Source: a virus
DNA: 64,000 nucleotides
Virus record (IMG/VR): IMGVR_UViG_3300025875_000007
Span: 1 to 64,000 of that record
Reading direction: 5' to 3' (one strand)
Made by a program: the position numbers and the translations under genes. Shown in pieces: positions 3,404 to 63,719 of this stretch. The notes beneath the pieces were generated by a model. That model made no database searches and was not told the origin of the DNA. It saw only the letters and a list, made by a program, of their open reading frames with translations. Numbering within the stretch: the stretch's first letter is position 1; each line of letters starts with the position of its first letter.

Positions 3404-3620
3404 TAATTAGAGATCGAACACGACTCGACGAACTCCTCGAATCTTGGGGTGCTGCGGCTCCATACGAAGGAACCGGACTCAACCGACTCCCTGAGATCAT
3501 GGAGATCTGTTACGAGAGAGCGCGCGTTACTGGTGTTCGTCAGAAGCTGACTTGGAATGCCCAACACAAGTCATGGTTCGTTTTCAATCTGGAAGATCAA
3601 CCACTACCCTAGGAGCAATA

Positions 3621-5631: not shown

Positions 5632-5659
5632 TTCGCGTACAATACGTGGCCTATAATAG
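5632..5659 (+). promoter_or_regulatory. phage promoter-motif copy (TTCGCG-N14-TATAAT)
   Basis: TTCGCG at 5632-5637, a 14-nt spacer, TATAAT at 5652-5657. It lies upstream of the nuclease/RNAP gene string. Confidence 0.5.
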
Positions 5660-5717
5660 AAGGGGTGAGGGTTTGCTTCTTGTTTTTGCCTGATTTTTCG
5701 ACGAAAGGGAGACTCTA

Positions 5718-6059
5718 ATGCGACGAAAGTTAGAGTCTCCCTTTCAATCTCGCTGGATTAAAAGGCTTGAGGCCGAATTTCCAGGCTGTATCATACTCAA
5801 ACTTGATGCCAACTATCGACAGGGCATTCCTGATCTCCTTATGCTCTGGGAGATTTATTGGGCTACGTTTGAAGTTAAGAAGACCCGACCGACGAAAGAA
5901 AGCGACTTCGAGCCAAATCAGGAATGGTACATAGCAAAGATGGACTCAATGTCGTTCTCTGCGTGCGTCTACCCCGAGAACGAAGAGGAGATCGTAGATG
6001 CGCTTCAACGACAATTCAAAACTCGCAGGGCAGCACTCGTTTCTAAGCGCAAGCAGTAG
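5718..6059 (+). CDS. VRR-NUC / PD-(D/E)XK nuclease
   Basis: GIPDLLML...ATFEVKK fits the PD...(D/E)xK pattern at VRR-NUC size. Confidence 0.65.
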   Translation: MRRKLESPFQSRWIKRLEAEFPGCIILKLDANYRQGIPDLLMLWEIYWATFEVKKTRPTKESDFEPNQEWYIAKMDSMSFSACVYPENEEEIVDALQRQFKTRRAALVSKRKQ

Positions 6060-6558
6060 CTCTTGGGTAAATTACGACGACGAGAAGCTTGATCGTGTTT
6101 ATCTGAGTCGACAGGCTGCAAAGCGTGGTACGGACTTTCACGATCTCGCCCAGCGATGCATCACGCTCAACCAAAGACTTCCTGAGTTCCCAGTTACGAC
6201 TATGGGGCTCTATGTTAACGATGCCATCGGCTTTCGGATGAAGCCTGAGGTTACCCTCTTTTATTCGATTAACGCATTCTGTACAACAGATTGCATTTCG
6301 TTTCGAAAGAACATGCTCCGGATTCACGACCTGAAGATGGGGCTTGGGCACACCTCAGAGCGTCAGCTTGAAGTTTATGCGGCTTACTTCTGTCTCGAGT
6401 ACGGTGTTCGTCCATTCGACATCGAGACCGAACTTCGGATTTATCAGAACAACGAGGCACGGATCTATGAAGCCGATCCTGTGACCATCTCTCTCATTAT
6501 GCAAAAGATCGTTGCGTTCGACAGGCGTATCAATCAGCTTAGGGAGGACTCTGAGTGA
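5998..6558 (+). CDS. PD-(D/E)XK exonuclease (Cas4/RecB-like phage exonuclease)
   Basis: The N-terminal HSFLSASSSSW matches the S(A/P)SSxxRW-type opening of phage exonucleases. IHDLKMG is the D-x-K motif and QLEVYAAY the QhxxY motif. ATG 5998 is the only start upstream of the first motif, which gives a 62-nt overlap. Confidence 0.6.
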   Translation: MRFNDNSKLAGQHSFLSASSSSWVNYDDEKLDRVYLSRQAAKRGTDFHDLAQRCITLNQRLPEFPVTTMGLYVNDAIGFRMKPEVTLFYSINAFCTTDCISFRKNMLRIHDLKMGLGHTSERQLEVYAAYFCLEYGVRPFDIETELRIYQNNEARIYEADPVTISLIMQKIVAFDRRINQLREDSE

Positions 6559-9287
6559 TTTTCCAGTATGAGGATTACATATCGCACTACGGAACTCCTC
6601 GGAAGTCTGGACGATACCCTTGGGGCTCCGGTACGAAAGATGAGAAGATCTATGAGGGAAGTTTTCTAGACATCACGTCTAAGATGGAACGTGATGGCAT
6701 GAAGCCCCTCGAGATCGCAAAAGGGTTCGGTATCACGACGACCCAGCTTCGTGCTCGCAAGACCATCGAGAGCAACGAGCGAAAGAATCAGAAGTTTGCA
6801 GATGTCAAGAAGCTCCATGACAAGCAAATGGGCCCTTCTGCGATTGGTAAGCAGTTAGGTCTTTCTGAGTCTTCTGTTCGCTCTGTGATTGCTTCGATGA
6901 ACAAGGAGCAAAAGGCGAACATCCATACCGTCGCCAAGATTCTTAAAGACGAAGTGGATGAGAAGAAGTACGTTCAGATTGGTACTGGTGTTGAGCATCT
7001 TCCCGTCATGGGCAACATTTCAGCAAACCGTCTGAAGAATGCTGTCGGTATTCTCGAAGAGGATGGCTACACAGTCCATTCTGTACAGGTGGACCAGATT
7101 GGCACTCCTGGACAAAAGACTACCGTTAAGGTTCTTACTCCTCCCGGAACGACGTATCGGGATGTGGACAACAACAAAGAACAAATTCGTCTTCCTGGTA
7201 AGTGGACCGATGATGGTGGCGACACTTTCCACGGTCCCAAGCCTCCTTTGAACATTGACCCTAAGCGGGTTGCGGTTCGATACAAGGAGCAAGGTGGTGA
7301 CGAGGCTGACGGTGTCATCTTTGTTCGTCCTGGCAAAGAAGACATCGCCATTGGCGGAAAGAACTATGCACAGGTTCGTATCGCTGTTGGTGGTACGCAC
7401 TATCTTAAGGGTATGGCCGTTTACAAAGACGACCTGCCTGATGGCGTAGATCTTCTGTTCAATACGAACAAGAGCGATACAGGCAACAAGCTCGACGCCA
7501 TGAAGAAGCAGGAGAAAGATCCGACTACCGCAACAAGGCGGAATCCAGACGGAACGCCCGATTTGGATTCTGCAAAGATTAATGAGACGAATCCCTTCGG
7601 ATCTCAGATTCGTCGGCAGATTCTTGATCTAGAAGGTAAGAAGGCCGTCTCGGCTATGAACCTTCTGGATGAAGAGGGAACTTGGTCTGACTGGAACAAG
7701 TCTCTTTCTTCTCAGGTTCTGTCTAAGCAGTCTCCTGTTCTGGCTAAGCAGCAGCTTGATGTCAAACGTCAGCGTATGAGGGAAGACCTTGACGAGATCA
7801 AGTCTCTGACCAACCCCGTTGTTCGTAAGCACCTTCTTGAGGCCTTTGCTGATGGTGCTGATTCTTCGGCAGTACACCTTGACGCTGCGCACATTCCTCG
7901 TCAGTCAACGCACGTTCTGCTTCCGGTTAAGAGTCTTAAGGCTAGTGAGGTTTACGCACCAAATTACGATGATGGCGAAACGGTTGTTCTGATTCGCTTT
8001 CCTCATGGTGGCAAGTTCGAAATTCCGGAACTCACGGTAAACAACAAGAATCGTGAAGCCATCAAGATGATGGGTAAGCGGCCTCCGGATGCTGTTGGTA
8101 TCAACTCCAAGGTTGCAGAACGACTTTCTGGTGCGGACTTTGATGGGGACACTGTTCTTGTCATTCCGAATAGTCCTAACAACCCTCGTCGTATTCGTAA
8201 CGAGGCAGCACTTAAGTCTTTGCAGGGATTCGATCCTAAGTCATACAAGCTTCCTGATGATGCACCAAAGATGTCTTCGAAGACTAAGGGCATTGAGATG
8301 GGTAAGGTTTCTAACCTTATCACTGACATGACGATTAAGGGTGCCAGCAACGAAGAGCTTGCTCGAGCTGTAAAGCACTCTATGGTAGTCATTGATGCTG
8401 AAAAGCACCATCTCGATTACAACAAGTCTTTTAGAGACCACGCCATTGGGGCTTTGAACGAACGATACATGAATGGGCCTAAGGGTGGAGCTTCGACTCT
8501 GATCTCAAGGGCTACGTCTATGGATCGTGGCGTTGACAAGATGGTTCCTCGTAAGGCATCTGAAGGCGGTCCTATCGATCCTAAGACGGGTCGTAAGATG
8601 CTAGTTCCTGATACCTATCTTACTCGTGATGGTGTTACTATCACTAAGAAGATGGACATTGAAAAGTTAGCGAATACTAATGACGCTTTCTCTTTGGTGT
8701 CTAAGGAACGTACTAAGATCGAGGAAGTTTACGCCGAGCATTCTAATGCTCTTAAAGAGTTTGCTAATGAGGCTCGTAGAGAGGTGTACGCATACAAGCC
8801 TCCTAGAGTAGACCTCAATGCTAAGAAGGTTTATAAGACTGAGGTTGCTAGCCTTGTGTCTAAGCTCAATGTTGCACGAGCTAATAAGCCTTTGGAGAGG
8901 CAGGCTCAACTCTTTGCCAATGCTGTGGTGGCTAAGCAGAAAGAAGCTGATCCCACCATGGATAGGGCTAGGCTTAAGAAGATTGAGGCCCAAGCATTAG
9001 CAACTGCTCGTGCTAGGGTACAGGCTAACAAGCACAAGATTGTACCTACTGATGAAGAGTGGGCCGCCATCCAGGCAAGGGCGGTTACACCTAACCAGCT
9101 TCAGCAGATGCTGTCTAATGCTGACCTAGATGCAGTGCGTACACTTGCTACACCTCGTGCTAGAACGGCTCTATCTCCTGCTAAGATAGCCCGTATCAAT
9201 AGCATGGCTGCACGAGGATTCAATCAGGCTGACATTGCTACTGCTTTGGGCCTATCCCCAGCAGTGGTTAGGGAAGTATTCAACTGA
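6555..9287 (+). CDS. candidate single-subunit two-barrel RNA polymerase (YonO-like) with fused HTH domains
   Basis: aa 279-304, GGTHYLKGMAVYKDDLPDGVDLLFNT, resembles the beta DPBB motif GRHGNKG...DMP..G..DIVLNP. aa 478-537, VLIRFPHGG...AVGINSKVAERLSGADFDGDTVLV, resembles the beta-prime NRAPTLHR...NADFDGDQMAV (ADFDGD at nt 8133-8150). HTH-like segments sit at aa ~50-70, ~92-115 and ~884-906. Confidence 0.6.
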   Translation: MIFQYEDYISHYGTPRKSGRYPWGSGTKDEKIYEGSFLDITSKMERDGMKPLEIAKGFGITTTQLRARKTIESNERKNQKFADVKKLHDKQMGPSAIGKQLGLSESSVRSVIASMNKEQKANIHTVAKILKDEVDEKKYVQIGTGVEHLPVMGNISANRLKNAVGILEEDGYTVHSVQVDQIGTPGQKTTVKVLTPPGTTYRDVDNNKEQIRLPGKWTDDGGDTFHGPKPPLNIDPKRVAVRYKEQGGDEADGVIFVRPGKEDIAIGGKNYAQVRIAVGGTHYLKGMAVYKDDLPDGVDLLFNTNKSDTGNKLDAMKKQEKDPTTATRRNPDGTPDLDSAKINETNPFGSQIRRQILDLEGKKAVSAMNLLDEEGTWSDWNKSLSSQVLSKQSPVLAKQQLDVKRQRMREDLDEIKSLTNPVVRKHLLEAFADGADSSAVHLDAAHIPRQSTHVLLPVKSLKASEVYAPNYDDGETVVLIRFPHGGKFEIPELTVNNKNREAIKMMGKRPPDAVGINSKVAERLSGADFDGDTVLVIPNSPNNPRRIRNEAALKSLQGFDPKSYKLPDDAPKMSSKTKGIEMGKVSNLITDMTIKGASNEELARAVKHSMVVIDAEKHHLDYNKSFRDHAIGALNERYMNGPKGGASTLISRATSMDRGVDKMVPRKASEGGPIDPKTGRKMLVPDTYLTRDGVTITKKMDIEKLANTNDAFSLVSKERTKIEEVYAEHSNALKEFANEARREVYAYKPPRVDLNAKKVYKTEVASLVSKLNVARANKPLERQAQLFANAVVAKQKEADPTMDRARLKKIEAQALATARARVQANKHKIVPTDEEWAAIQARAVTPNQLQQMLSNADLDAVRTLATPRARTALSPAKIARINSMAARGFNQADIATALGLSPAVVREVFN

Positions 9288-15855: not shown

Positions 15856-16479
15856 GTGAGCGATAGTATTCTAATCAGTACCAAGAAGGCTCTGGACGTT
15901 CCAGAAAACTATGATGTCTTCGACCAAAACATCATTATGCACATCAACAGCGTGTTCTCAACTCTGTCTCAGCTTGGTATTGGTCCCGAAGAGGGATTTG
16001 AGATTGAGGATGACACTTCACTGTGGAGTCACTTCCTTGGCGGCAACGCAAAGTTCAACTTTGTAAAGACTTACATGTTCCTGCAAGTCAAGTTGCTCTT
16101 TGATCCTCCTGGTACATCGTTTCTTCAAGATTCAATCAAGGAGAAGATCAAAGAACTTGAGTATCGAATTGTTACCGAGGTAGAAACGCGTTCAACAAGA
16201 ATTAAGAGCGCGTTTAAGAGAATTAGTGCGAACCGTGGTGACGAACTTCGAGTTCATGTCGCAAATCCTGCAGGAAAAACTTATATCGATGATGCGGGAT
16301 CATACGAGGCGGTCTTTGTGCCATTGGGTGGGACGCGGGAAAGAAGCGCTAGTCTTGACACATCAAACAAGGCTAGAGGTGTTTTGTATCTAATGGTCAA
16401 TGTTGAAGACGGCACGTATACAGTTCGCAGGTTAAGTCCTAGGCGTACTATTCTCGTACTCGAGGTGAATGCAGAATGA
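15856..16479 (+). CDS. hypothetical structural-module protein (N-terminus resembles gp6-type head-tail connector)
   Basis: GTG after [40 protein letters not shown] resembles connector N-termini. Confidence 0.5.
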
Positions 16480-17771
16480 GTGGGTTTTTAGAACCACAGG
16501 TGGAAGTGTCGATTGACGGTCAGGAAGGACCTCCGGGGCCCATGGGACCACCAGGTCCTGCCGGGCCTCCCGGTTCTGATGGACCTCCTGGTCCTACTGG
16601 AGCAGATTCAACGATTCCAGGTCCACAAGGTCCACAAGGTCCTAGTGGGCCTCCTGGTCCTGAGGGTCTTGAGGGCGCGCCGGGACCCACGGGTGCCGAT
16701 TCAACCGTTCCGGGCCCTGCCGGTCCGGAAGGCCCCGAGGGTCCTCCAGGTCCTGCTGGTGCTGATTCAACTGTTCCGGGTCCCGCTGGTCCGGAAGGTC
16801 CTGAGGGTCCTGCCGGTCCCGAAGGTCCTACAGGTCCTGCTGGTGCTGACTCAACTGTTCCGGGTCCTGCTGGTCCAACGGGTCCCGAAGGTCCTGCAGG
16901 TCCTGCTGGTGCTGACTCAACGGTTCCGGGTCCTGTTGGTCCAACGGGTCCCGAAGGTCCTGAGGGTCCTGTCGGTCCTGAGGGTCCGGAAGGTCCTCCC
17001 GGACCTGCTGGTGCTGACTCAACTGTTCCGGGTCCTCCTGGTCCCGAAGGTCCGGAGGGCCCCAAAGGAGACACGGGAGATACAGGTCCTCAGGGTCCTC
17101 CCGGTCCTGCGGGAGAAGATGGTACGGGCGGTTCTTCTGGTTACCCCATGGTGGGTGGTTTTAGCGCTCGTGGTCCTGGCGATATTTCTATTGACGCCTG
17201 GGGTCCGATGGCTATGCTTTCAAAGAGCAGCTCTAGCCAGGCGGGAGGACTAGACCAAGGAGGCGCTTTTCTACAGATTGGAAGTGGAACTTCCACTGGA
17301 ACGGCGGTGCAGTATCAAATCAATACCGCCATTGCTCGTCGAGACGCAATGAGTCATTTGACTTTTCGGTTTACACTTGAACAGCTTGTTGCGCAGCGCT
17401 TTGTTCTTGGATTTATGTCTGACTTTTCCGTATCCGTTCTGACTGGTACCTATGCGATTCTTGAGTTCGACACAAACAATAGTGACACCACGTTTAAGTT
17501 CGTTAGCGCTATTACTGGTTCACGTACGGTGGTTGATACATTAGTCTCTCCTGGTCCAGGTAGTATTTTAGATTTAGACATCGAACTTCTTTCGAATGGA
17601 ACAAAGATGTCTCTTACAGATCTATCTGGTGCTGTTTTGGCTACCCATACCTTTGCCGATGCAGAAAGCGTTCCCCCAACCACTCCGCTTGAGATGGGTA
17701 TTGGTATCTTAAATCGGGAGGCCGCAGCCAAGGTGCTCAAGATGTACCGAGGCGTTTTGCGCCATCGATAA
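16476..17771 (+). CDS. collagen-like (Gly-X-Y) repeat protein with a globular C-terminal domain
   Basis: About 200 aa of uninterrupted GPxGPx triplets, punctuated six times by GADST(V/I)PGP, then a ~210-aa non-repetitive domain. Confidence 0.85.
16524..17130 (+). repeat. tandem coding repeats (collagen triplets; GADSTVPGP-containing units)
   Basis: GCTGA(T/C)TCAAC(T/G)GTTCCGGGTCC recurs about every 60-100 nt. Both other frames stay open, which produces shadow ORFs 16513..17253 and 16520..17074(-). Confidence 0.8.
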
Positions 17772-41100: not shown

Positions 41101-41633
41101 TGGCTCATGTAGCAAATGATGAGTACACTCCCCTTTTCAGCAATCGTGTGTACGATGTGCTGAAGTATATTGCGCTGGTCATTCTTCCCGCCGCAAGCGC
41201 TTTATATTTCGGGTTGGGTGAGATTTGGGACCTTCCCAAGGTCACCGAGGTTATCGGTACGATTTCTGTACTGGATACAGTTCTCGGTATGATTATTCGA
41301 TCCGATAACATTCGCTATCGAAATAGCGATGCTCGGTTTGACGGGAAGATTGCTGAGGTTGAGGTTAAGGGCGACAACAATTATTCGCTAGACGTCAAGG
41401 GTGATCCAGCAGAGGTTCTTGAGACTCAAGAAGAGGTTCTGCTTAAGGTCAGTCCGGAAGTGGCGCCAGTTGAGGTTGTTGAAACTCCTCCTTCGCCTAA
41501 GCCACCGCCTCGTAAGAGGGCTCCGCGTAAGAAGCCGGTGGTAGGAATTGCTCCGCCCGCTCCGGTCGAGCCTCCAGTTCCGGTGGTTTCTAAGAAAGTG
41601 ACACGCAAGGCTGCTCCGCGTAATCCTGAGTAG
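41100..41633 (+). CDS. holin (phage r1t holin family-like) with a Pro-rich tail
   Basis: FSNRVYDVLKYIALVILPAASALYFGLGEIWDLPKVTEVIGTISVLDTVLGMII matches my memory of the r1t-type holin pattern. Confidence 0.65.
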   Translation: MAHVANDEYTPLFSNRVYDVLKYIALVILPAASALYFGLGEIWDLPKVTEVIGTISVLDTVLGMIIRSDNIRYRNSDARFDGKIAEVEVKGDNNYSLDVKGDPAEVLETQEEVLLKVSPEVAPVEVVETPPSPKPPPRKRAPRKKPVVGIAPPAPVEPPVPVVSKKVTRKAAPRNPE

Positions 41634-41661
41634 GTCGCGATATTTACATCTCCTATAAAGG
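41634..41661 (+). promoter_or_regulatory. promoter-motif copy (GTCGCG-N14-TATAAA)
   Basis: TCGCG at 41635-41639, hexamer at 41654-41659, 29 nt before ATG 41688. Confidence 0.5.
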
Positions 41662-41687
41662 AAGCCCCCCTCTACGTTAGGAGAAAT

Positions 41688-41978
41688 ATGTTCAGCAAGA
41701 AGCCTTGCCCTGAAGAGACGGAGCTTAACACCGAGATCACTCGCGTGCTTGCCGTGCTTGCACGATGTGAGCCCGATTCCGACGAGTACACCAGCGCAGT
41801 CAAGAACCTCGCGACGCTGTACGCGCAGAAGGAGACCCTTCCTGTCACGCGCGTCAGCCCCGACACGTTCTGGACCGTCGTTGCCAACCTCGCCGGACTC
41901 GCTCTCGTCACGCAGTACGAGCGCGCGAACGTCCTCGGTGGTTACGCCATCAAGCTCGTCAGGCAGCTGAAGAACTGA
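41688..41978 (+). CDS. hypothetical protein (96 aa)
   Basis: Track ORF with an AGGAGA RBS. High GC3. Confidence 0.7.
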   Translation: MFSKKPCPEETELNTEITRVLAVLARCEPDSDEYTSAVKNLATLYAQKETLPVTRVSPDTFWTVVANLAGLALVTQYERANVLGGYAIKLVRQLKN

Positions 41979-42007
41979 GCAGTCCCCGCTAGACCCTTCC
42001 GAAGTCG

Positions 42008-42052
42008 GAGGGCACGCGAACCTTAAACAAGTTTGCGTGCCCTCTGATTTTC
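42008..42052 (+). terminator. intrinsic terminator
   Basis: GAGGGCACGC (42008-42017) pairs with GCGTGCCCTC (42035-42044), followed by TGATTTT. Confidence 0.7.
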
Positions 42053-42080
42053 GGTTGAATTACATATCCTCTAATTTTTG

Positions 42081-42108
42081 GTCGCGTGATATTCATCGCC
42101 TATAATGA
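42081..42108 (+). promoter_or_regulatory. promoter-motif copy
   Basis: GTCGCG-N14-TATAAT(42101-42106)-GA. Confidence 0.55.
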
Positions 42109-42137
42109 CCCGACTCCACCAATTCTAAGGAGATCCG

Positions 42138-42371
42138 ATGCACCCGACCCTCAAGGTTCTGGTGGCCATCTTCGTCACCACTCTTGCCAACCACAAGTTC
42201 TACCAGTACAAGCTTTCCATGCTCGACGACCTGCACCGCCAGGCCTCGATCAAGGAGTGCATGGAAGGGTGGACGCGCGGCTTCAAGGATGGTGAGCTGG
42301 AAGGCCGCCGGGCCATGTGGCTCGAACACCTGACCGATCCCAAGGCACCCTGGTACAAGTCCGAGTCCTAA
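42138..42371 (+). CDS. small protein (77 aa), N-terminal TM
   Basis: AAGGAGA RBS and its own motif promoter. Confidence 0.7.
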   Translation: MHPTLKVLVAIFVTTLANHKFYQYKLSMLDDLHRQASIKECMEGWTRGFKDGELEGRRAMWLEHLTDPKAPWYKSES

Positions 42372-42375
42372 GGCC

Positions 42376-42403
42376 GGAGCCCCTCACAAGGGCTCTAGTC
42401 TTT
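42376..42403 (+). terminator. conserved hairpin + TAGTCTTT module
   Basis: GAGCCC/GGGCTC stem, then TAGTCTTT at 42396-42403. Confidence 0.5.
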
Positions 42404-42429
42404 CGCGAGATATTCACGCCCTATAATGA
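42402..42429 (+). promoter_or_regulatory. promoter-motif copy
   Basis: TTCGCG-N14-TATAAT(42422-42427)-GA. Confidence 0.55.
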
Positions 42430-42454
42430 CCAGCCCTCAACCTCAGGAGTTCGC

Positions 42455-42565
42455 ATGAAGCTCAAGACCGTCCTCGTCAACCTCGGCGCCTTCGCCACCG
42501 TGTTCATCGCGGCCACCAAGGCGCTCGAGTACTTCGACAAGAAGAACAAGCTCCGCAACAACTGA
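42455..42565 (+). CDS. 36-aa membrane peptide
   Basis: CAGGAG RBS. MKLKTVLVNLGAFATVFIAATKALEYFDKKNKLRNN. It shares the stop of track ORF 42317..42565. Confidence 0.55.
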   Translation: MKLKTVLVNLGAFATVFIAATKALEYFDKKNKLRNN

Positions 42566-42585
42566 CCCGAGATCCGAGACCTCTG

Positions 42586-42616
42586 AAGTCTATGTAACCC
42601 ATAGGCTTTACGTCTT
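42586..42616 (+). terminator. conserved hairpin module
   Basis: AAGTCTATG/CATAGGCTT 9-bp stem, then TACGTCTT. Confidence 0.5.
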
Positions 42617-42642
42617 CGCGGATATTACACGGACTATAACGA
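42615..42642 (+). promoter_or_regulatory. promoter-motif copy
   Basis: TTCGCG-N14-TATAAC(42635-42640)-GA. Confidence 0.5.
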
Positions 42643-42668
42643 CCCCGCTCACAACATCAGGAGTAGAC

Positions 42669-42821
42669 ATGTTCGACCTGTCGCACCCCAAGTCCGTGAC
42701 CCTCATCGTGACGGTCAACCTCGACCCCGTTCCGGGTACCTTCCACACCCAGGAGAGTGCTCAGGAGGGCGTCCAGGCCATCCTCACCTCGATGATCCCG
42801 CACTACAAGCCCGACGTCTAG
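42669..42821 (+). CDS. 50-aa protein, hypothetical
   Basis: CAGGAG RBS then ATG 42669: MFDLSHPKSVTLIVTVNLDPVPGTFHTQESAQEGVQAILTSMIPHYKPDV. It is below the track cutoff. Confidence 0.5.
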   Translation: MFDLSHPKSVTLIVTVNLDPVPGTFHTQESAQEGVQAILTSMIPHYKPDV

Positions 42822-42854
42822 ATCCACCCGATGCACGCGTAGTCACAGACCTCT

Positions 42855-42879
42855 GAAGCCCTCATGGGTTTTAAGTCTT
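42855..42879 (+). terminator. weak hairpin + TAAGTCTT module
   Basis: GAAGCCC/GGGTTTT pair with wobbles, then AAGTCTT. Confidence 0.35.
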
Positions 42880-42880
42880 A

Positions 42881-42908
42881 TTCGCGAGAAAAACAAGCCC
42901 TATAATGA
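42881..42908 (+). promoter_or_regulatory. promoter-motif copy
   Basis: TTCGCG-N14-TATAAT(42901-42906)-GA. Confidence 0.55.
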
Positions 42909-42939
42909 CCCAACCACTACAACTGTTAGGAGCCCCACC

Positions 42940-43200
42940 GTGGACCTCAGCAGCAGCGTGATCATGCCTCGAGAAGACTTCATCGAGCTCACGACATGCG
43001 CCTTCAACCAGCCCCCCACGTCGCCCGCCGAGCGCGTCGCCGTCACCCTGCAGACCACCATCATCTTCGCAGGGATCGCCGCCGCCTTCAGCGGTGCCAC
43101 GTACGTCTGGTACCGGCTCATGTCGAAGCTCGAGTCGGAGAAGACCGAGAACGAGATCACCGTCATCGACGCCCGCGCCAACAGCTACAAGCAGCAGTAG
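42940..43200 (+). CDS. small membrane protein (86 aa)
   Basis: GTG after TAGGAG. TM VAVTLQTTIIFAGIAAAFSGATYVWY. Confidence 0.65.
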   Translation: MDLSSSVIMPREDFIELTTCAFNQPPTSPAERVAVTLQTTIIFAGIAAAFSGATYVWYRLMSKLESEKTENEITVIDARANSYKQQ

Positions 43201-43215
43201 ATCAGTCAAGACCCC

Positions 43216-43249
43216 GAGTCTATGCCCACCAGCATAGGCTCTAGGTCTT
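43216..43249 (+). terminator. conserved hairpin + TAGGTCTT module (repeat family copy A)
   Basis: GAGTCTATGC/GCATAGGCTC 10-bp stem. Confidence 0.55.
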
Positions 43250-43266
43250 CAAAATAGGAGTGTTTT

Positions 43267-43440
43267 ATGGCTGCATCCTTCGTCGATCCTAAACTTGATG
43301 AGTTCATAAAGTTCTTAGAAAGCCTTTCGGAAATTCCCCTGTCTCCTTGGCAAAAAGAGCTTGCAAAGGTGGTTTTAAGCGGTAAGAAGTTCCGCATCGT
43401 CCAAGGTCGCAAGGGATCGTACATCGTGACAGACGCGTAA
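43267..43440 (+). CDS. 57-aa protein, hypothetical (AT-richer insert, no motif promoter)
   Basis: TAGGAG RBS. MAASFVDPKLDEFIKFLESLSEIPLSPWQKELAKVVLSGKKFRIVQGRKGSYIVTDA. Confidence 0.45.
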   Translation: MAASFVDPKLDEFIKFLESLSEIPLSPWQKELAKVVLSGKKFRIVQGRKGSYIVTDA

Positions 43441-43459
43441 CTTTCACGCCCTATAGTGA
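43432..43459 (+). promoter_or_regulatory. promoter-motif copy (ACGCG variant)
   Basis: ACGCG(43433-43437)-N14-TATAGT(43452-43457)-GA. Confidence 0.45.
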
Positions 43460-43494
43460 AAGACCCATCGCCATCCCGACAGAAAGAAGTCGTC

Positions 43495-43719
43495 ATGACC
43501 ATGTTCGCCAAGCTCATCACCGAAGCCACCATCGAGGAGATCACCGAGACCAACGACGGTGTGCGCCCCGCCGACGAGACCCTGAACAACAACACGTTCT
43601 ACGTCTACCCGGACGCGCACACCGACGCCCACGCGGAGATCCTCACCCGAGCCGCCTTCGGCAAGAAGTACGCCTGGCACGACGTCAACTCGACCGACAA
43701 CATCGTCGTCCCGCGCTAG
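43495..43719 (+). CDS. small acidic protein (74 aa)
   Basis: ATG 43495 within track ORF 43456... AGAAAGAAG lies upstream. Confidence 0.6.
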   Translation: MTMFAKLITEATIEEITETNDGVRPADETLNNNTFYVYPDAHTDAHAEILTRAAFGKKYAWHDVNSTDNIVVPR

Positions 43720-43732
43720 TCCTTCACCAAGG

Positions 43733-43760
43733 CTAGGCCCCCTCCAGGGGCTTTAGTCTT
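43733..43760 (+). terminator. conserved hairpin + TTAGTCTTT (part of an exact 48-nt repeat)
   Basis: GCCCC/GGGGC stem. Positions 43721-43768 are identical to 44038-44085. Confidence 0.5.
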
Positions 43761-43762
43761 TG

Positions 43763-43790
43763 CTCGCGCAAAAGACATGGACCCTAATGA
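43763..43790 (+). promoter_or_regulatory. promoter-motif copy (degenerate hexamer CCTAAT)
   Basis: CTCGCG-N14-CCTAAT-GA. Confidence 0.4.
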
Positions 43791-43815
43791 AGGACCCCGA
43801 CCCAGAAGGAGAGAC

Positions 43816-44034
43816 ATGTCCAAGCAATTCAAGCGTTCCGACGCCTGCACCAAGCTCATCGAGTCCATCTACATGATCAGCTCCGGACCAGACATCACGC
43901 CCCCAGACCTCAACCGAGGCTTCCTGGAGGCGCTGACCTGCTTCGCCGCGACCATGAGTGGCCACACGAGCGTCATCGCAGGCACCGACAGCGACGGAGA
44001 AGTCGAAGACTTCATGTTCATCTTCCGCAACTAG
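43816..44034 (+). CDS. small protein (72 aa)
   Basis: GAAGGAGAGA RBS then ATG 43816 within track ORF 43777... Confidence 0.6.
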   Translation: MSKQFKRSDACTKLIESIYMISSGPDITPPDLNRGFLEALTCFAATMSGHTSVIAGTDSDGEVEDFMFIFRN

Positions 44035-44049
44035 CACCCTTCACCAAGG

Positions 44050-44077
44050 CTAGGCCCCCTCCAGGGGCTTTAGTCTT
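44050..44077 (+). terminator. conserved hairpin + TTAGTCTTT (second copy of the 48-nt repeat)
   Basis: Identical to the copy at 43733-43760. Confidence 0.5.
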
Positions 44078-44079
44078 TG

Positions 44080-44107
44080 CTCGCGTTATATTCATCTCCT
44101 ATAGTGA
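44080..44107 (+). promoter_or_regulatory. promoter-motif copy
   Basis: CTCGCG-N14-TATAGT(44100-44105)-GA. Confidence 0.55.
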
Positions 44108-44135
44108 AGACCCCCTACCCCATCAAGGAGATCCC

Positions 44136-44372
44136 ATGCACGGACCCTACGGCTTCGAGAAGACCACCCGCACGGTGGCCGACCTCCAGGAGGACGACCG
44201 ATTTTACATCGGTGGACTCATGTACAAGGTCCTCGGCGACCCGCTCACCAATTCGGTGAACGGCGAAGTCCAGGTCCGCATGTACCCCGTGTTCGTCGAC
44301 TTCCTCCCGGACATCACCGTCATGACCCTTCCCGGCCGGAACCCGATCGAGATCCACAACCAGCCCGCGTAG
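44136..44372 (+). CDS. small protein (78 aa)
   Basis: AAGGAGA RBS. Track ORF. Confidence 0.7.
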   Translation: MHGPYGFEKTTRTVADLQEDDRFYIGGLMYKVLGDPLTNSVNGEVQVRMYPVFVDFLPDITVMTLPGRNPIEIHNQPA

Positions 44373-44384
44373 ACCCTTCGAAGG

Positions 44385-44417
44385 CTAGAGCCCCCATCAC
44401 CATGGGCTTTAGTCTTT
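44385..44417 (+). terminator. conserved hairpin + TTAGTCTTT module
   Basis: AGCCC...GGGCT stem, then TTAGTCTTT ending at 44417. Confidence 0.45.
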
Positions 44418-44456
44418 GCAAATCTAAAAAATTCCCGGGGGAGGTTTTCAGTCAAA

Positions 44457-44484
44457 GTCGCGTAAAAAACACGCACTATAATGA
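44457..44484 (+). promoter_or_regulatory. promoter-motif copy
   Basis: GTCGCG-N14-TATAAT(44477-44482)-GA. Confidence 0.55.
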
Positions 44485-44511
44485 CCCGACCCATCTGATT
44501 GGAGAGCCCCC

Positions 44512-44730
44512 ATGCTCAACAAGCTCAAGAAGTCCAACCGGTACCAGTACACCTGTCCCGACGTCATCCACTACCGCAAGAACCAGTACCGGCTCGCGAT
44601 CTACTCCAACGTGTTCGCAGTCGCTACCCAGGTCCTCTTCTGGGGTGGCCTCGTCGCGATGAGCAAGCGCCTGGACCCGAAGCCGACCCTCAAGCCCGTG
44701 GAGCCCCTCAGCCCCTCCGACGCCAGCTAG
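44512..44730 (+). CDS. small membrane protein (72 aa)
   Basis: GGAGAG RBS. TM IYSNVFAVATQVLFWGGLVAM. Confidence 0.7.
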   Translation: MLNKLKKSNRYQYTCPDVIHYRKNQYRLAIYSNVFAVATQVLFWGGLVAMSKRLDPKPTLKPVEPLSPSDAS

Positions 44731-44745
44731 TCCCGTCAAGACCCC

Positions 44746-44779
44746 GAGTCTATGCCCACAAGCATAGGCTCTAGGTCTT
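44746..44779 (+). terminator. conserved hairpin + TAGGTCTT (repeat family copy B)
   Basis: The 35-nt core 44745-44779 is identical to 45953-45987 and differs by 1 nt from 43215-43249. Confidence 0.55.
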
Positions 44780-44787
44780 ACTGAAAT

Positions 44788-44815
44788 ATCGCGACATATA
44801 CATATCCTATAGTGA
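44788..44815 (+). promoter_or_regulatory. promoter-motif copy
   Basis: ATCGCG-N14-TATAGT(44808-44813)-GA. Confidence 0.55.
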
Positions 44816-44843
44816 ACGTCCATCTCTCACGAAGGAGTTTTAT

Positions 44844-44948
44844 ATGCCACGACTCATTCAGTACGTCCTCTGGACTTGGTTCTCGTGCATCCTCATGTAC
44901 GGCGGAACCATCCTGTTCGTCTTTGCGCTCGTCAGCATCATGACCTAG
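44844..44948 (+). CDS. 34-aa membrane peptide
   Basis: GAAGGAG RBS. MPRLIQYVLWTWFSCILMYGGTILFVFALVSIMT. Confidence 0.5.
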   Translation: MPRLIQYVLWTWFSCILMYGGTILFVFALVSIMT

Positions 44949-44974
44949 CTTCTACAGATCTAGTTCAAGGCTAC

Positions 44975-44998
44975 AGCCCTACACGGGCTTTAGTCTTT
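44975..44998 (+). terminator. conserved hairpin + TTAGTCTTT module
   Basis: AGCCC-TACAC-GGGCT, then TTAGTCTTT. Confidence 0.45.
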
Positions 44999-45003
44999 CG
45001 CAA

Positions 45004-45076
45004 GGGCCTATAGCTCAATTGGCAGAGCAGCGGACTTTTAATCCGCGGGTTCAGGGTTCGAGTCCCTGTGGGCCCA
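45004..45076 (+). tRNA. tRNA-Lys (anticodon UUU)
   Basis: Cloverleaf folded by hand. Acceptor GGGCCTA/TGGGCCC, D-arm AGCTCAATTGGCAGAGC, anticodon arm GCGGA-CTTTTAA-TCCGC, T-arm CAGGG-TTCGAGT-CCCTG. Confidence 0.85.
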
Positions 45077-45144
45077 CTCGCAAGGGGAGTCGTCACTAAG
45101 ATTTACCAACATGCAGTCCCCCATGATATTCTGCATGTTGGCTG

Positions 45145-45217
45145 GTCCTCATCGTCCAGTGGCCTAGGACTCCACCCTTTCAAGGTGGCTACGCGGGTTC
45201 GAATCCCGTTGAGGGCA
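45145..45217 (+). tRNA. tRNA-Glu (anticodon UUC)
   Basis: Acceptor GTCCTCA/TGAGGGC, D-arm GTCC-AGTGGCCTA-GGAC, anticodon arm CCACC-CTTTCAA-GGTGG, T-arm GCGGG-TTCGAAT-CCCGT. Confidence 0.85.
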
Positions 45218-45250
45218 CGATACATACCAACCAAAATAGGAGCGATAATT

Positions 45251-45445
45251 ATGGTTCAGATGGTTATTCAGAGGATTTCTGATAAGAAGTTTGCTTCGCT
45301 GCGCGGTTTCATGAACCACATAACGGACGCCGAATTCTTCGACGACGAAGTACATGCATTGGAAGTCATGCAAGACTACACGAAGAGCGGTACTCCATGC
45401 GAGTTGCTTTACGTCACAATCACCATGTCAAACGTAAAGGGCTAG
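45251..45445 (+). CDS. hypothetical protein (64 aa)
   Basis: TAGGAG RBS then ATG 45251. The upstream part of track ORF 45068.. overlaps both tRNAs and is rejected. Confidence 0.55.
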   Translation: MVQMVIQRISDKKFASLRGFMNHITDAEFFDDEVHALEVMQDYTKSGTPCELLYVTITMSNVKG

Positions 45446-45449
45446 TCTC

Positions 45450-45599
45450 ATGGAATCGGTTCAAATTGTAGTCACAAGACTAACGCCATCGCCAGGAGTA
45501 ACGCTTTACTCCATTCAAAACGCAGACGGTAAGGTGACGCAGGCGGAAGCGGTGGCTATACTTCGGGCAGCTGCTGATGATATGGAAAGTCGTAAATAG
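45450..45599 (+). CDS. hypothetical protein (49 aa)
   Basis: ATG 45450: MESVQIVVTRLTPSPGVTLYSIQNADGKVTQAEAVAILRAAADDMESRK. Confidence 0.4.
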   Translation: MESVQIVVTRLTPSPGVTLYSIQNADGKVTQAEAVAILRAAADDMESRK

Positions 45600-45604
45600 G
45601 ATCA

Positions 45605-45632
45605 CTCGCGAAAAAAACACGCCCTATAACGA
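45605..45632 (+). promoter_or_regulatory. promoter-motif copy
   Basis: CTCGCG-N14-TATAAC(45625-45630)-GA. Confidence 0.5.
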
Positions 45633-45661
45633 CCCTGTTCATCCGACAGATTGGAAATGTC

Positions 45662-45925
45662 ATGACCGACACCTCCGTCACCCCCACCACCGTCCCCACC
45701 GTCCCCCCGTCCCCGACGAGCGTCCCCGTGCCGCCCGCCGAGACCGAGACGGTCGCCAAGGTCGCCGGCGTCCTCGTGCGCGCGAAGGGTGGAGCCTCCA
45801 AGCTCCTCACCCGCTTCGCCGTGCCCGTCGCCACCGGTGCCCTGACCGGCCTCCTCGTCAACGCCAAGCGCAACCGCTCGGAGAACGAGGACGACGACGT
45901 GGTGGTCGACGAGTCGAACGACTAG
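45662..45925 (+). CDS. Pro/Thr-rich small protein (87 aa) with one hydrophobic segment
   Basis: Track ORF. High GC3. Confidence 0.65.
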   Translation: MTDTSVTPTTVPTVPPSPTSVPVPPAETETVAKVAGVLVRAKGGASKLLTRFAVPVATGALTGLLVNAKRNRSENEDDDVVVDESND

Positions 45926-45953
45926 TCCCATCCGCCTCAACAGATCAGGCCTC

Positions 45954-45988
45954 GAGTCTATGCCCACAAGCATAGGCTCTAGGTCTTT
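45954..45988 (+). terminator. conserved hairpin + TAGGTCTTT (repeat family copy C)
   Basis: GAGTCTATGC/GCATAGGCTC stem. Confidence 0.55.
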
Positions 45989-45991
45989 CTG

Positions 45992-46019
45992 TTCGCGATA
46001 TTTACATCGCCCATAGTGA
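45992..46019 (+). promoter_or_regulatory. promoter-motif copy
   Basis: TTCGCG-N14-CATAGT(46012-46017)-GA. Confidence 0.5.
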
Positions 46020-46140
46020 AGAAATATCCCTTACTATGGAGTGTAAGATGAGATCACTGTGTTATGTCAATAGCACCCCCGGAAGCCCTGACAAGCGGAC
46101 AAATTGTGAAACTTCTTTCCCTTTTATTTTTGGAGGAAAC

Positions 46141-46341: not shown

Positions 46342-46369
46342 TTCGCGTAAAATACACATCCCATAGTAG
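46342..46369 (+). promoter_or_regulatory. promoter-motif copy
   Basis: TTCGCG-N14-CATAGT(46362-46367)-AG. Confidence 0.5.
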
Positions 46370-46493
46370 AGGAGTCCTGAAAAGGATCCGAGACACTAAT
46401 GTGTAGGTGAAAACCCTACCCGGAGTGGTAGCCATTAAAGATAAGGCTACTTAACGGACTGTTTTAGTTGGACAGTCACCTCCTCTATTTTTT
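46368..46493 (+). ncRNA. ~125-nt structured RNA / leader closed by a long-range stem and a U-run
   Basis: AGAGGAG (46368-46374) pairs with CTCCTCT (46480-46486), followed by ATTTTTT. Internal hairpins: GTAGCC/GGCTAC and GACTGT/ACAGTC. There is no credible ORF. Confidence 0.45.
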
Positions 46494-48832: not shown

Positions 48833-49438
48833 ATGATCACGAAGACCATCACGTTCGAGGACTTCAACGGTAAGACTCTTACCGAGGAGTTCTGCTTCCA
48901 CCTCTCTGAGGACAAGGTCATTGAGATGGAGCTGAGCAAGAAGGGCGGTCTTACTGAGTACATCAAGCGGATCGTTGCCGAGGAGGACGGTGAGAAGCTG
49001 GTTGCCATCTTCAAGGACCTCCTGACAAAGACCGTCGGTAAGAAGTCTCCGGATGGTCGTAAGTTCATCCAAAACCAGGAGATCACTGACGACTTCGTTC
49101 AGACCCCTGCATATTCCAAGCTCTTTGTTGAACTGTCTACGGATGCGGGCCAGGCTGCGGCATTCATCAACGGTGTTGTTCCCGCTTCGATGCAGGCGGA
49201 GATCAAGAAGAAGCAGCAGGCTGTTACTGATCTTCCGTCTGTCGAGGGTGCTGTTGCGCTCGCGCAGGATGCTCAGGCGTCTACCCCGCTCTCGCAGCAG
49301 GACGAGTTCGAGGAGAAGATGAAGGACCCGGATTGGGTTCCGACACAGAAGGACCTACAGAACATGTCTCCGGCACAGATCGCAGCCGCCTTCCAACGCA
49401 AGCAGGCTCAGACCGAGCGAGCTCAGAGCACTCCGTAG
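48833..49438 (+). CDS. conserved phage protein (201 aa), function unknown
   Basis: Track ORF, tightly coupled to the upstream gene. Confidence 0.65.
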   Translation: MITKTITFEDFNGKTLTEEFCFHLSEDKVIEMELSKKGGLTEYIKRIVAEEDGEKLVAIFKDLLTKTVGKKSPDGRKFIQNQEITDDFVQTPAYSKLFVELSTDAGQAAAFINGVVPASMQAEIKKKQQAVTDLPSVEGAVALAQDAQASTPLSQQDEFEEKMKDPDWVPTQKDLQNMSPAQIAAAFQRKQAQTERAQSTP

Positions 49439-49466
49439 TTCGCGTAAAATACACGGGCCATAGTGA
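49439..49466 (+). promoter_or_regulatory. promoter-motif copy
   Basis: TTCGCG-N14-CATAGT(49459-49464)-GA, starting 1 nt after the upstream stop. Confidence 0.5.
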
Positions 49467-49562
49467 GACCACTCAAAAGCCCGAAAGGGATTCATAGGAG
49501 CAATACCTCTAAAGCGCGAAAGCGAATCACAGGAGCAATACCTACGTGGTCTCTATTTTTTT
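49465..49562 (+). ncRNA. ~100-nt structured RNA with two 35-nt-period direct repeats, closed by an 8-bp stem + U7
   Basis: GAGACCAC (49465-49472) pairs with GTGGTCTC (49546-49553), then TATTTTTTT. Repeat units at 49476-49508 and 49511-49543 each hold a GAAA-tetraloop hairpin plus AGGAGCAATACCT. One base pair covaries between units (CCC/GGG vs CGC/GCG). Confidence 0.55.
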
Positions 49563-49598
49563 CGACCCCTCCCACACCCACTAGTTAGGAATCCAATT

Positions 49599-49958
49599 AT
49601 GACCGAGATCCGCGAGGACGAGATCGTCGACGCCGAGATTGTCAATGGCAACGACACCAAGTCCCTGAAGAAGTTCAACCCTGGGCGTAGCGGCCTCAAG
49701 CTGATCGCTACAAGCTCGGTCCGGTTTGTGGTCTCCTCTGCGATCACGACGCTCGTCCCGGTCGAGACCAAGAAGGAGAAGCGCAAGGTCTTCGTTGCGT
49801 CCATGGTGCTCTCCGGTATGCTCAACGAGCAAGTCAAGCCGTATGTCGACCGCGAGATCGACGAGGCAATCGACTTCTGCAAGGGCGTGGTCGAGCACAT
49901 CAACAAGATGCAGCAGGCGCAGGCAGAGGCCGCCGAGTCTGACGTTCCTAACCCGTGA
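49599..49958 (+). CDS. hypothetical protein (119 aa), two moderately hydrophobic segments
   Basis: Track ORF with a TAGGAA RBS. Confidence 0.65.
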   Translation: MTEIREDEIVDAEIVNGNDTKSLKKFNPGRSGLKLIATSSVRFVVSSAITTLVPVETKKEKRKVFVASMVLSGMLNEQVKPYVDREIDEAIDFCKGVVEHINKMQQAQAEAAESDVPNP

Positions 49959-62809: not shown

Positions 62810-62883
62810 GGGCCCTTGGCCCAAATGGCAGAGGCAGGGGCCTTAAAAGCCCCGAGTTATGGGTTCAAGTCCCATAGGGCCCA
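62810..62883 (+). tRNA. tRNA with anticodon UAA (Leu by anticodon) but a short 5-nt variable loop
   Basis: Acceptor GGGCCCT/AGGGCCC, anticodon arm GGGGC-CTTAAAA-GCCCC, variable loop GAGTT, T-arm ATGGG-TTCAAGT-CCCAT, discriminator A. The D-stem has one mismatch. Confidence 0.7.
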
Positions 62884-62957
62884 CGAAACGCCCGGTAACG
62901 ACCCGGGGAAAGGAGATCGTCAGAGTCATGGCCTAATCCACTAATAGAGAAGAAAAT

Positions 62958-63532: not shown

Positions 63533-63560
63533 TTCGCGAAAAAAACATGCGCTATGATGA
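63533..63560 (+). promoter_or_regulatory. promoter-motif copy
   Basis: TTCGCG-N14-TATGAT(63553-63558)-GA, starting 1 nt after the upstream stop. Confidence 0.5.
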
Positions 63561-63676
63561 GACCCCGTGTCGTCGCCGCCCAAATGTAAATTCAGGTGGA
63601 CATCCGATGGCACGGGGTCTCATCCAAGCCTTATGTTGCTTTCCGTTGATTAATTTCCGGACGAGACATAGGCTTT
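63559..63676 (+). ncRNA. structured 5' leader (two long hairpins) upstream of 63720
   Basis: The 11-bp stem GAGACCCCGTG (63559-63569) / CACGGGGTCTC (63611-63621) begins right after the hexamer. A second hairpin, GCCT(T)ATG...CATAGGC, lies at ~63626-63676. Confidence 0.4.
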
Positions 63677-63719
63677 CATTAATGCTCGTCAACCCATCCC
63701 AAATATAGAGGAGACTCTC

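Follow-up and report, generated by a model that had tools for sequence, protein, structure and literature searches.

The DNA analysed here is a 64,000-nucleotide stretch of a viral genome (IMG/VR record IMGVR_UViG_3300025875_000007, positions 1 to 64,000; hereafter the window), and our subject is a non-coding region of its plus strand, starting at position 49439, in which a promoter is followed by two tandem RNA repeats, a run of U residues and a gene for a 119-aa protein. The reading we favour, at roughly even confidence, is that this region belongs to a lineage-specific family of promoter-proximal RNA cassettes in phages with a YonO/RdRP-like RNA polymerase (RNAP), and that it specifies a hairpin-closed leader or small RNA with a leaky terminator. 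The data establish the anatomy of the element, its conservation, the covariation of its closing helix, the recurrence of its design, the exchange of its modules and the lack of a cognate toxin. Relatives were compared as loci (labelled L008 and so on) taken from metagenome assemblies and from two annotated GenBank isolates, Arthrobacter phage Giantsbane (L049, MN703412) and Streptomyces phage Bilo (L050, MZ820086).

A fixed scaffold around a variable interior

The tandem repeat at 49472-49543 (period 35, 2.1 copies, 86% matches, score 109) is the sole sizeable non-coding one that Tandem Repeats Finder (TRF) reports for the window. A preliminary description of the locus had compared two 33-nt units (49476-49508 and 49511-49543), and its figure of 29/33 identity at a period of 35 nt is reproduced; over the direct repeat 49472-49506 and 49507-49541, 30 of 35 positions are identical. 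Copy 2 departs from copy 1 by five substitutions, which include one compensatory stem pair: the middle pair of the unit hairpin is C-G in copy 1 and G-C in copy 2 (CCC/GGG versus CGC/GCG), with the GAAA loop and the whole 13-mer AGGAGCAATACCT unchanged. Both hairpins are present where they had been described (49480-89 and 49515-24), and the 13-mer has exactly two occurrences, starting at 49496 and 49531. The repeats are flanked by the arms of an 8-bp helix, whose 5' arm follows the promoter hexamer without a gap and which closes an interior of 73 nt. With 5 G-C pairs and UAUUUUUUU behind it, this stem has the composition of an intrinsic terminator and is atypical in having a "loop" of 73 nt; the terminator of the preliminary description thus keeps its 8-bp stem and U7 run but not its local hairpin, since the arms enclose both units.

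The proposed succession of promoter, structured RNA and U-run is upheld, as is the statement that no open reading frame (ORF) fits the region: a 12-codon GTG frame at 49546 was considered as a small ORF and rejected, the frame being lost in the closest relative, L008. Comparison with Rfam, which had been suggested as a check, returned no family (Rfam 15 covariance models, 49350-49650, E ≤ 10), and tRNA-like, CRISPR-repeat-like and preQ1-like readings of the module found no support from ARAGORN, Rfam, or loop and stem geometry. The 10-mer AGGAGCAATA has four copies in the window, where 0.08 would be expected; those at 3611 and 59890 stand directly before an ATG and are genuine ribosome-binding sites (RBSs), in keeping with the earlier claim that the 10-mer also serves in this way. 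Within the cassette AGGAG is present twice, the first copy having no start codon at a workable distance and the second a GTG 10 nt past it.

Through homologues of both flanking genes we reached 13 orthologous loci in metagenome assemblies, with flanking proteins 45-73% identical to those of the window. Common to them are the promoter, a helix at offset 0 from the hexamer, a T-run past the 3' arm, a C-rich leader (CGACCCC…), an RBS and a downstream gene of 105-130 aa. Across eight orthologues, 96.4% of the cells of the closing helix are paired and seven of its eight pairs show double changes; none of 500 shuffles reaches the observed covariation, and slid registers pair only 26-60% of cells. 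The pair probability of the closing helix is ~1.0 in every orthologue (ViennaRNA), its arms varying between GAGACCAC/GTGGTCTC, GAGACCTC/GAGGTCTC and AGAACCC/GGGTTCT and forming 16-17 bp in L014 and L015.

The interior, by comparison, comes in about eight unrelated types: type A in the window (two units) and in L008/L009 (one unit), type B in L010 and L052 (about 37 nt), type C in L011 and L013 (49 nt), type D in L012 and L053 (about 58 nt), type E in L014 and L015 (37-40 nt), type F in L016 (a bare 4-nt loop), type G in L051 (about 100 nt) and type H in L054 (46 nt). The repeat number is accordingly 2 in the window, 1 in its nearest relative (L008/L009) and 0 in the 11 other orthologous loci, and the tandem repeat is best described as a local duplication by which one module type, found in 2 of 13 lineages, varies in copy number (1 versus 2). 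The preliminary description had named a lack of conserved repeats and pairing among relatives as grounds against its proposal; such a lack is largely found for the repeats and is not found for the hairpin and helix pairing.

Where two loci share a type, their interiors are 92-95% identical, compared with 65-77% for the adjacent coding DNA (window/L008, L010/L052, L011/L013), and the promoter and tail flanks are likewise less conserved than the interior. L008 and L011, for their part, have the most similar flanks (80-85%) and unrelated interiors. Since interiors exceed the identity of their flanks and types are discordant with those flanks, we conclude that the modules are under sequence-level constraint and are exchanged inside a fixed scaffold. 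No module was found to recur elsewhere in 54 loci, and none matched Rfam at E ≤ 1 in the loci of nine relatives. The RNA-level function first proposed for the repeats is supported by the compensatory pair in the unit hairpin, the covariation of the closing helix and the conservation of the modules above that of neighbouring genes.

Table 1. Coordinates of the 49439 cassette, its flanking genes and its sister cassettes in the window
Feature	Positions	Strand	Remarks
Upstream gene, 201 aa	48833..49438	+	Pfam Phage_TAC_17; stop TAG (49436-38) abuts the promoter; synteny kept in relatives
Phage-specific promoter	49439..49464	+	T-TCGCG-TAAAATACAC-GGGC-CATAGT; hexamer CATAGT at 49459-49464
5' arm of closing helix	49465..49472	+	GAGACCAC; also the conserved purine-rich start-of-transcript sequence (GAGACC) of the promoter class
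Module copy 1, 35 nt	49472..49506	+	hairpin CCC-GAAA-GGG 49480-89; 13-mer AGGAGCAATACCT 49496-49508; identical to the single copy in L008/L009
Module copy 2, 35 nt	49507..49541	+	hairpin CGC-GAAA-GCG 49515-24; 13-mer 49531-49543
3' arm of closing helix	49546..49553	+	GTGGTCTC; pair probability ~1.0
U-run	49554..49562	+	UAUUUUUUU (U7); with the helix, an intrinsic-terminator-like signal
C-rich unstructured leader and RBS	49563..49598	+	CGACCCCTCCCACACCC, RBS TAGGAA (49586-91); no separate promoter; CGACCCC...TTAGGAnnCnAATTATG recurs in relatives
Downstream gene, 119 aa	49599..49958	+	weak match phrog_7539; first gene of the operon fed by the 49439 promoter
Sister cassette "locus 2"	46343..46493	+	same promoter; helix AGAGGAG/CTCCTCT, then A + U6; encloses a conserved structured RNA of ~105 nt
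Sister cassette	63534..63621	+	same promoter type; 11-bp helix GAGACCCCGTG/CACGGGGTCTC at hexamer+1; 41-nt interior; no U-run
Sister cassette	5633..5690	+	promoter, short AGAAG...CTTCT helix with a U-run; UGUUUUUG after the helix

A promoter class, a putative polymerase and a recurring design

The motif promoter claimed at 49439 is real and recurrent: TCGCG-N14-(T/C)ATA(A/G)T has 14 plus-strand copies in the window, among them one more example of the 49439 type at 46343. The consensus of 119 distinct instances, from loci of 29-59% GC, is T-CGCG-TAAAATACAC-nnCC-TATAAT-GARA. Conservation covers a block of ~20 contiguous bp, spacer included, and runs through hexamer+4 (GARA) over this whole range of base composition; the base at hexamer+1 is a purine in 117 of the 119 instances, and low-GC and high-GC subsets give the same profile. 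The 14 bp that separate TCGCG from the hexamer do not suit a -35/-10 pair. A contiguous block kept across hosts through +4 is the pattern that a phage-encoded recognition system would leave, and it hints at a start of transcription on hexamer+1 or beside it. Scans for the promoter core picked out 9 viral and 18 metagenome stretches (29-59% GC), several of which encode homologues of DUF6353, the primase-polymerase and p212, signature proteins of the phage group; a scan of IMG/VR for the promoter plus GAGACC gave no matches, and a looser promoter pattern did match.

The promoter of Giantsbane reads TCGC(G/A)-N14-TATAAT-GAGAAG. In Bilo GAGACCCCTAC follows every promoter, from which we take the GAGACC of the 5' arm to be the standard start-of-transcript sequence of the group, to which the 3' arm has evolved to pair. 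The promoter of both isolates is probably the 32-bp intergenic boundary repeat published for cluster AU phages, where it was read as a recombination motif (bioRxiv 10.1101/2020.01.10.891226); a literature search for a promoter, start site or terminator of these phages found only this repeat.

A candidate for the recognising enzyme is the 910-aa product of 6555-9287, a putative YonO/RdRP-like single-chain RNAP, assigned on the strength of its match to PHROG 4291 (E = 0) and of the literature; a PDB sequence search with it returned no match. It carries helix-turn-helix (HTH) motifs at both termini; a speculative possibility is that these domains recognise the bipartite promoter. A putative RNAP of this kind has been described as the hallmark of a supercluster of actinophages to which Lactococcus 1706-like and Faecalibacterium phages also belong (bioRxiv 10.1101/842583).

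Eleven of the 14 window promoters belong to an array at 41.6-45.9 kb, each standing before a small gene that in most cases encodes a membrane protein; the units of the array end in a hairpin and TAGTCTT immediately before the next promoter; none of these 11 ordinary promoters has an offset-0 closing helix. Each of the 11 genes of the array (41630-45990) has its own TCGCG-N14-TATAAT-GACCC promoter, an organisation resembling that of the T4 promoter/stem-loop motifs (PeSL). Three near-identical terminator hairpins, GAGTCTATGCCCAC(A/C)AGCATAGGCTCTAGGTCTT, lie at ~43215, ~44745 and ~45955, and the block 43720-43780 is duplicated at 44030-44085.

The association of helix and promoter was quantified in an offset-unbiased, promoter-anchored scan, which replaced a first long-range-stem scan judged too crude. 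Helices of at least 8 bp are enriched only when their 5' arm begins between -3 and +1 relative to the end of the hexamer (27 observed vs ~7.6 expected); those at other offsets are at background (44 observed vs ~46 expected). Besides the sister cassettes of the window (Table 1), further cassettes of the same design occur in relatives, at L010:374 and L016:503 and in L018, L024 and L025, of which L018 and L025 are AT-rich. In Giantsbane three stand in tandem between genes 41 and 42, in a 449-nt gap that carries no annotation (L049 2541-2989); the 46343 RNA has paralogues in two of the three, and one, cassette 1, lacks a U-run.

The RNA of locus 2 is ~126 nt long (46368-46493), with a GNRA-capped hairpin that varies and a core of GACACUAAUGU...CCGG. 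Among five orthologues it has 38 predicted pairs, six of them with double changes, and a DUF6353 gene stands downstream of it in the window, L008, L010, L012 and L013; an Rfam search of the sister loci, this RNA included, gave no relevant match. In L010 another promoter follows a cassette of the locus 2 type directly, which makes the cassette a free-standing RNA gene there.

Several further structures lie near these cassettes. The 63534 cassette is followed, before the next gene, by a second long-range helix (~63626-63685). About 360 nt of non-coding DNA (5634-5998) stand upstream of the genes leading to the RNAP gene, and past the 5634 cassette they hold a perfect 16-bp hairpin, GAAAGGGAGACTCTAA...TTAGAGTCTCCCTTTC, at ~5695-5737. 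A third conserved non-coding leader stands behind a promoter at 45993-46140 (orthologues L008:617 and L012:301); its apparent ATG frame is not conserved, and its internal hairpin covaries (GCUAC-GUCC-GUAGC, CCUAC...GUAGG, UGUUAU...AUAGCA).

A proposed hairpin-closed leader and its alternatives

In the reading we favour, the ~26-bp promoter (TCGCG-N14-CATAGT) would fire with a start at or within 1-2 bases of G49465. The first eight transcribed bases, GAGACCAC, would pair with 49546-49553 once the 3' arm has emerged, closing the 73-nt interior just ahead of U7, and helix and U-run together would act as a leaky intrinsic terminator or attenuator. A fraction of transcripts would then end as a ~98-nt hairpin-closed RNA with a sequestered 5' end, and read-through would yield the mRNA of the promoter-less downstream operon (the genes for the 119-aa and a 212-aa protein and onward). 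The interior would be a payload slot, filled here by two tandem 35-nt modules that each join a GAAA-capped mini-hairpin to the Shine-Dalgarno (SD)-like AGGAGCAAUACC; such modules would be under sequence-level selection and exchanged between lineages. For their action, a cis-acting, 30S-binding element like STAB-SD is our preferred but weakly supported guess, drawn by analogy: two SD sequences devoid of start codons could bind 30S subunits in cis and, with the 5'-terminal helix, protect the read-through mRNA.

STAB-SD and SP82-type elements are 5' mRNA stabilisers of Gram-positive bacteria that consist of a strong SD-like sequence in the 5' leader. The cassette resembles them in carrying AGGAG, twice and in the same context as real phage RBSs, in a 5' leader where no usable start codon employs it for initiation; it differs in that its SD is duplicated, is paired with a GAAA hairpin and belongs to one module type only. 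The ompA leader and the T7 phi10 leader, GGGAGACCAC..., are stabilisers of another sort, in the form of 5'-terminal stem-loops. Like these and like the terminators of leader/attenuator systems, the cassette has a helix formed by its initial bases, directly behind a phage promoter, and then a U-run ahead of a gene with no promoter of its own, and its 5' sequence GAGACCAC resembles the start of the phi10 leader. It differs from them in that its helix closes 4 to ~100 nt of conserved, exchangeable modules, with no antiterminator or sensing domain evident, and in that its polymerase is probably YonO-like rather than T7-like or that of the host.

PeSL of T4-like phages (PMC4122927) and the 32-bp repeat of cluster AU offer a third comparison, as repeated composite motifs that delimit the small genes of a plastic region, with exchange of sequence between conserved motifs. 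Repeated promoter and stem-loop motifs, variable inserts and exchange are all found here, with the order of elements reversed: in PeSL and in the ordinary units of the window phage the stem-loop precedes the promoter, whereas the cassette is promoter-first, and its helix arms bracket a non-coding RNA payload instead of an ORF.

A number of observations weigh against the leader reading. The start and the termination of the cassette RNA are both inferred from sequence. Were the TATAAT-like hexamer a sigma-70-type -10, the start would fall ~7 nt further on, within the 5' arm, and the cassette's RNA would have no closing helix. An 8-bp stem closing a 73-nt multiloop is probably a weak and atypical terminator, the T-run amounts to only 4 U in L010, L014, L015, L052 and L054, and the fold of the whole RNA is no more stable than that of shuffled sequences (z = -1.3). 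The enzyme itself raises a doubt: the paper on YonO links, in its discussion, the flap domain to hairpin-dependent termination, and a YonO-type RNAP is without one (PMC5467207). Given the absence of that domain, such a polymerase may ignore hairpin terminators, a deduction that is ours. SD-like pentamers are statistically unremarkable in 40-100 nt, and the STAB-SD idea fits some module types only. Finally, Giantsbane and Bilo have the ordinary order, hairpin and then promoter, at the orthologous position, so the cassette of the 49439 locus is not universal. At that position Bilo also has a closed structure of ~100 nt (GAGATGAGATGGGG...CCCCGCATCTCATC) upstream of the promoter. In favour of termination, ordinary genes of Giantsbane end in canonical hairpin and U6-7 terminators, which indicates that such signals are in use in the phage group.

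A promoter-embedded insulator is an alternative that we regard as unlikely. Here the hexamer would be a sigma-70-type -10 with a start ~7 nt downstream, near A49471; the promoter's own transcripts, lacking the 5' arm, would run into the 119-aa gene with the interior as a plain 5' untranslated region (UTR), and only RNA from the upstream operon would hold both arms and end at the U-run. The hexamers do keep the critical -10 positions, A at 2 and T at 6, in nearly all copies, and no other terminator lies between the upstream gene and the 49439 promoter. The conserved 6-nt helix base GAGACC would sit exactly in the discriminator region, so that the stretch of stem next to the U-run would be missing from RNA started at this promoter, even in loci with stems of 16-17 bp. 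Coupling of promoter and terminator is known in bacteria, but with the terminator upstream of the promoter (bioRxiv 10.64898/2026.08.19.745784), which is also where the ordinary units of this genome put it. A host-sigma promoter, moreover, accords neither with the 14-bp spacing nor with contiguous conservation through the spacer and +1 to +4 at 29-59% GC, and the conserved RNA of locus 2 would lose its covarying P1 helix. What decides for us between the two readings is that the 63534 cassette and cassette 1 of Giantsbane keep the offset-0 helix without a U-run: there the helix cannot serve to terminate upstream RNA, and it is tied to the cassette's own transcript.

That the RNA acts in trans, as a decoy or sponge, the idea preferred in the preliminary description, appears distinctly unlikely. 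The scaffold would do no more than express and stabilise a payload. This payload would titrate a factor of host or phage (30S subunits, a translational repressor that binds RBSs, or a defence protein that targets RNA), would differ by phage to match the host, and would gain capacity in going from one unit to two. Modules conserved well above the flanking genes and swapped between lineages behave as functional payloads would; copy 2 has kept its hairpin, GAAA loop and 13-mer through five substitutions; the 10-mer is identical to two real RBSs; and the sister cassette of L010 is a free-standing RNA gene. Yet in 185,579 species genomes no bacterial counterpart array came to light, no antisense match to the module was found in the window, no Rfam family matches any module, L016 keeps the cassette with no payload at all, and the cassette always heads the same operon, which fits a cis role. 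A broader version of this idea, which we rate as quite improbable, sees the supercluster scaffold (its own promoter, 5'/3' closing helix and U-run) as a display for interchangeable trans-acting RNA payloads against host factors, serving as ribosome or RBS-regulator decoys or as anti-defence mimics, with the type swapped and the copy number amplified (1 to 2) in host adaptation. Such a scaffold, if real, would be an RNA counterpart of protein moron and anti-defence cassettes.

Even less credible, in our judgement, is a purely DNA-level element, in which promoter and helix flanks would be recombination boundaries or protein-binding repeats and the duplication a by-product of slippage with no function in RNA. 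The discordance between interior types and flank phylogeny is in its favour, as are the recombination-promoting role ascribed to the same promoter motif in cluster AU (bioRxiv 10.1101/2020.01.10.891226) and the link between T4 PeSL motifs and modular shuffling (PMC4122927). Compensatory changes in helix and unit hairpin indicate selection on pairing, however; the modules are more conserved than the coding flanks, and the strand-specific U-run, the fixed offset from the promoter and the orientation with transcription all point to RNA.

The preliminary description had likened the locus to a type III toxin-antitoxin system, and we attach almost no credence to a ToxI-like antitoxin array or phage pseudo-ToxI that would neutralise a ToxN-family endoribonuclease encoded downstream or by the host. 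The likeness to ToxIN, CptIN and TenpIN loci and to pseudo-ToxI is one of layout: a promoter, RNA repeats with a period in the ~34-45-nt range (2.1 copies, period 35, 86%), a terminator-like signal and a gene, with varying copy number. Pseudo-ToxI expansion is known from escape phages (PhiTE, ToxIN), and the step from one copy to two recalls it.

The neighbour, however, is no ToxN, as had been suspected: the 119-aa protein matches nothing in Pfam or PADLOC at E ≤ 0.01, a ToxN, AbiQ, CptN or TenpN endoribonuclease included (sequence models; no fold search), and its only match is a weak one to a PHROG of unknown function (phrog_7539). Its core hardly differs between the window, L008, L010 and L011, which carry two units, one unit and two unrelated interiors, and L016 keeps the downstream gene and a cassette that has no interior payload. 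A protein that neither co-varies with the RNA nor matches Pfam or PADLOC leads us to reject a type III pair; encoded in cis, such a pair is largely refuted. The stem, besides, encloses the repeats instead of coming after them, the repeat is missing from 11 of 13 orthologous loci, and the cassette is not a member of the type III class. The tempting annotation of the 49439 locus as a type III antitoxin is thereby removed as wrong.

For a host counterpart we scanned 185,579 species genomes (one genome per species) for tandem GGAGCAATAC. The 74 matches, against a rough chance estimate of ~16, were coding, REP-like or other simple repeats in unrelated phyla, and none had a ToxN-like neighbour. The most promising of them, a REP-like array in a Rhizobacter metagenome-assembled genome (L103 6802-6985, 36 nt x 5.1) and one in Moorena bouillonii (L126 1-170, 34 nt x 5), were judged coincidental or REP-like and rejected as host counterparts; in both, GGAGCAATAC stands beside a small GC hairpin, and the Moorena unit shares ...TCAAAG after the 10-mer. 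The sole actinobacterial match was rejected as a coding EQY/DQY repeat. An exact tandem 12-mer scan of IMG/VR gave two matches, both within a coding repeat (…GAIP…) carried by an unrelated, AT-rich phage, and a degenerate scan for the unit in JGI metagenomes found nothing.

Significance and the wider window

The cassette family appears to be undescribed in the literature searched. The scaffold and its sister RNAs are what deserves attention; the repeat alone is an unremarkable duplication. The promoter of the YonO/RdRP-like enzyme class is still undefined in that literature, including the paper on the YonO late transcript of SPbeta (PMC5467207). Should the leader reading be right, it would give a first working description of promoter and start of transcript for phages with such polymerases across phyla, among them Arthrobacter clusters AM, AU and AW, Streptomyces BI, Gordonia DJ and the Lactococcus 1706-like phages. 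It would also mean that unannotated intergenic gaps in SEA-PHAGES genomes hold structured RNAs, including a conserved family of ~130 nt and a slot for exchangeable modules, and it would offer a compact system for asking how a closing helix and U-run balance a short RNA against read-through mRNA.

The window phage is a siphophage oriented along the plus strand, and its GenBank relatives are distant: a megablast-type near search against GenBank phages gave no matches, and its proteins share 30-52% identity with proteins from Arthrobacter and Streptomyces phages. At the gathering threshold, Rfam finds only three tRNAs in the window. These are Lys-UUU, Glu-UUC and Leu-UAA, encoded at 45004-45218 and 62810-62884. 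The Lys-UUU and Glu-UUC genes come directly after a hairpin and TAGTCTT element and lack a promoter, so that transcription must be supposed to pass through the element. A 431-aa ORF (16476-17771) contains long coding repeats of collagen-like (Gly-X-Y) type at 16520-17110.

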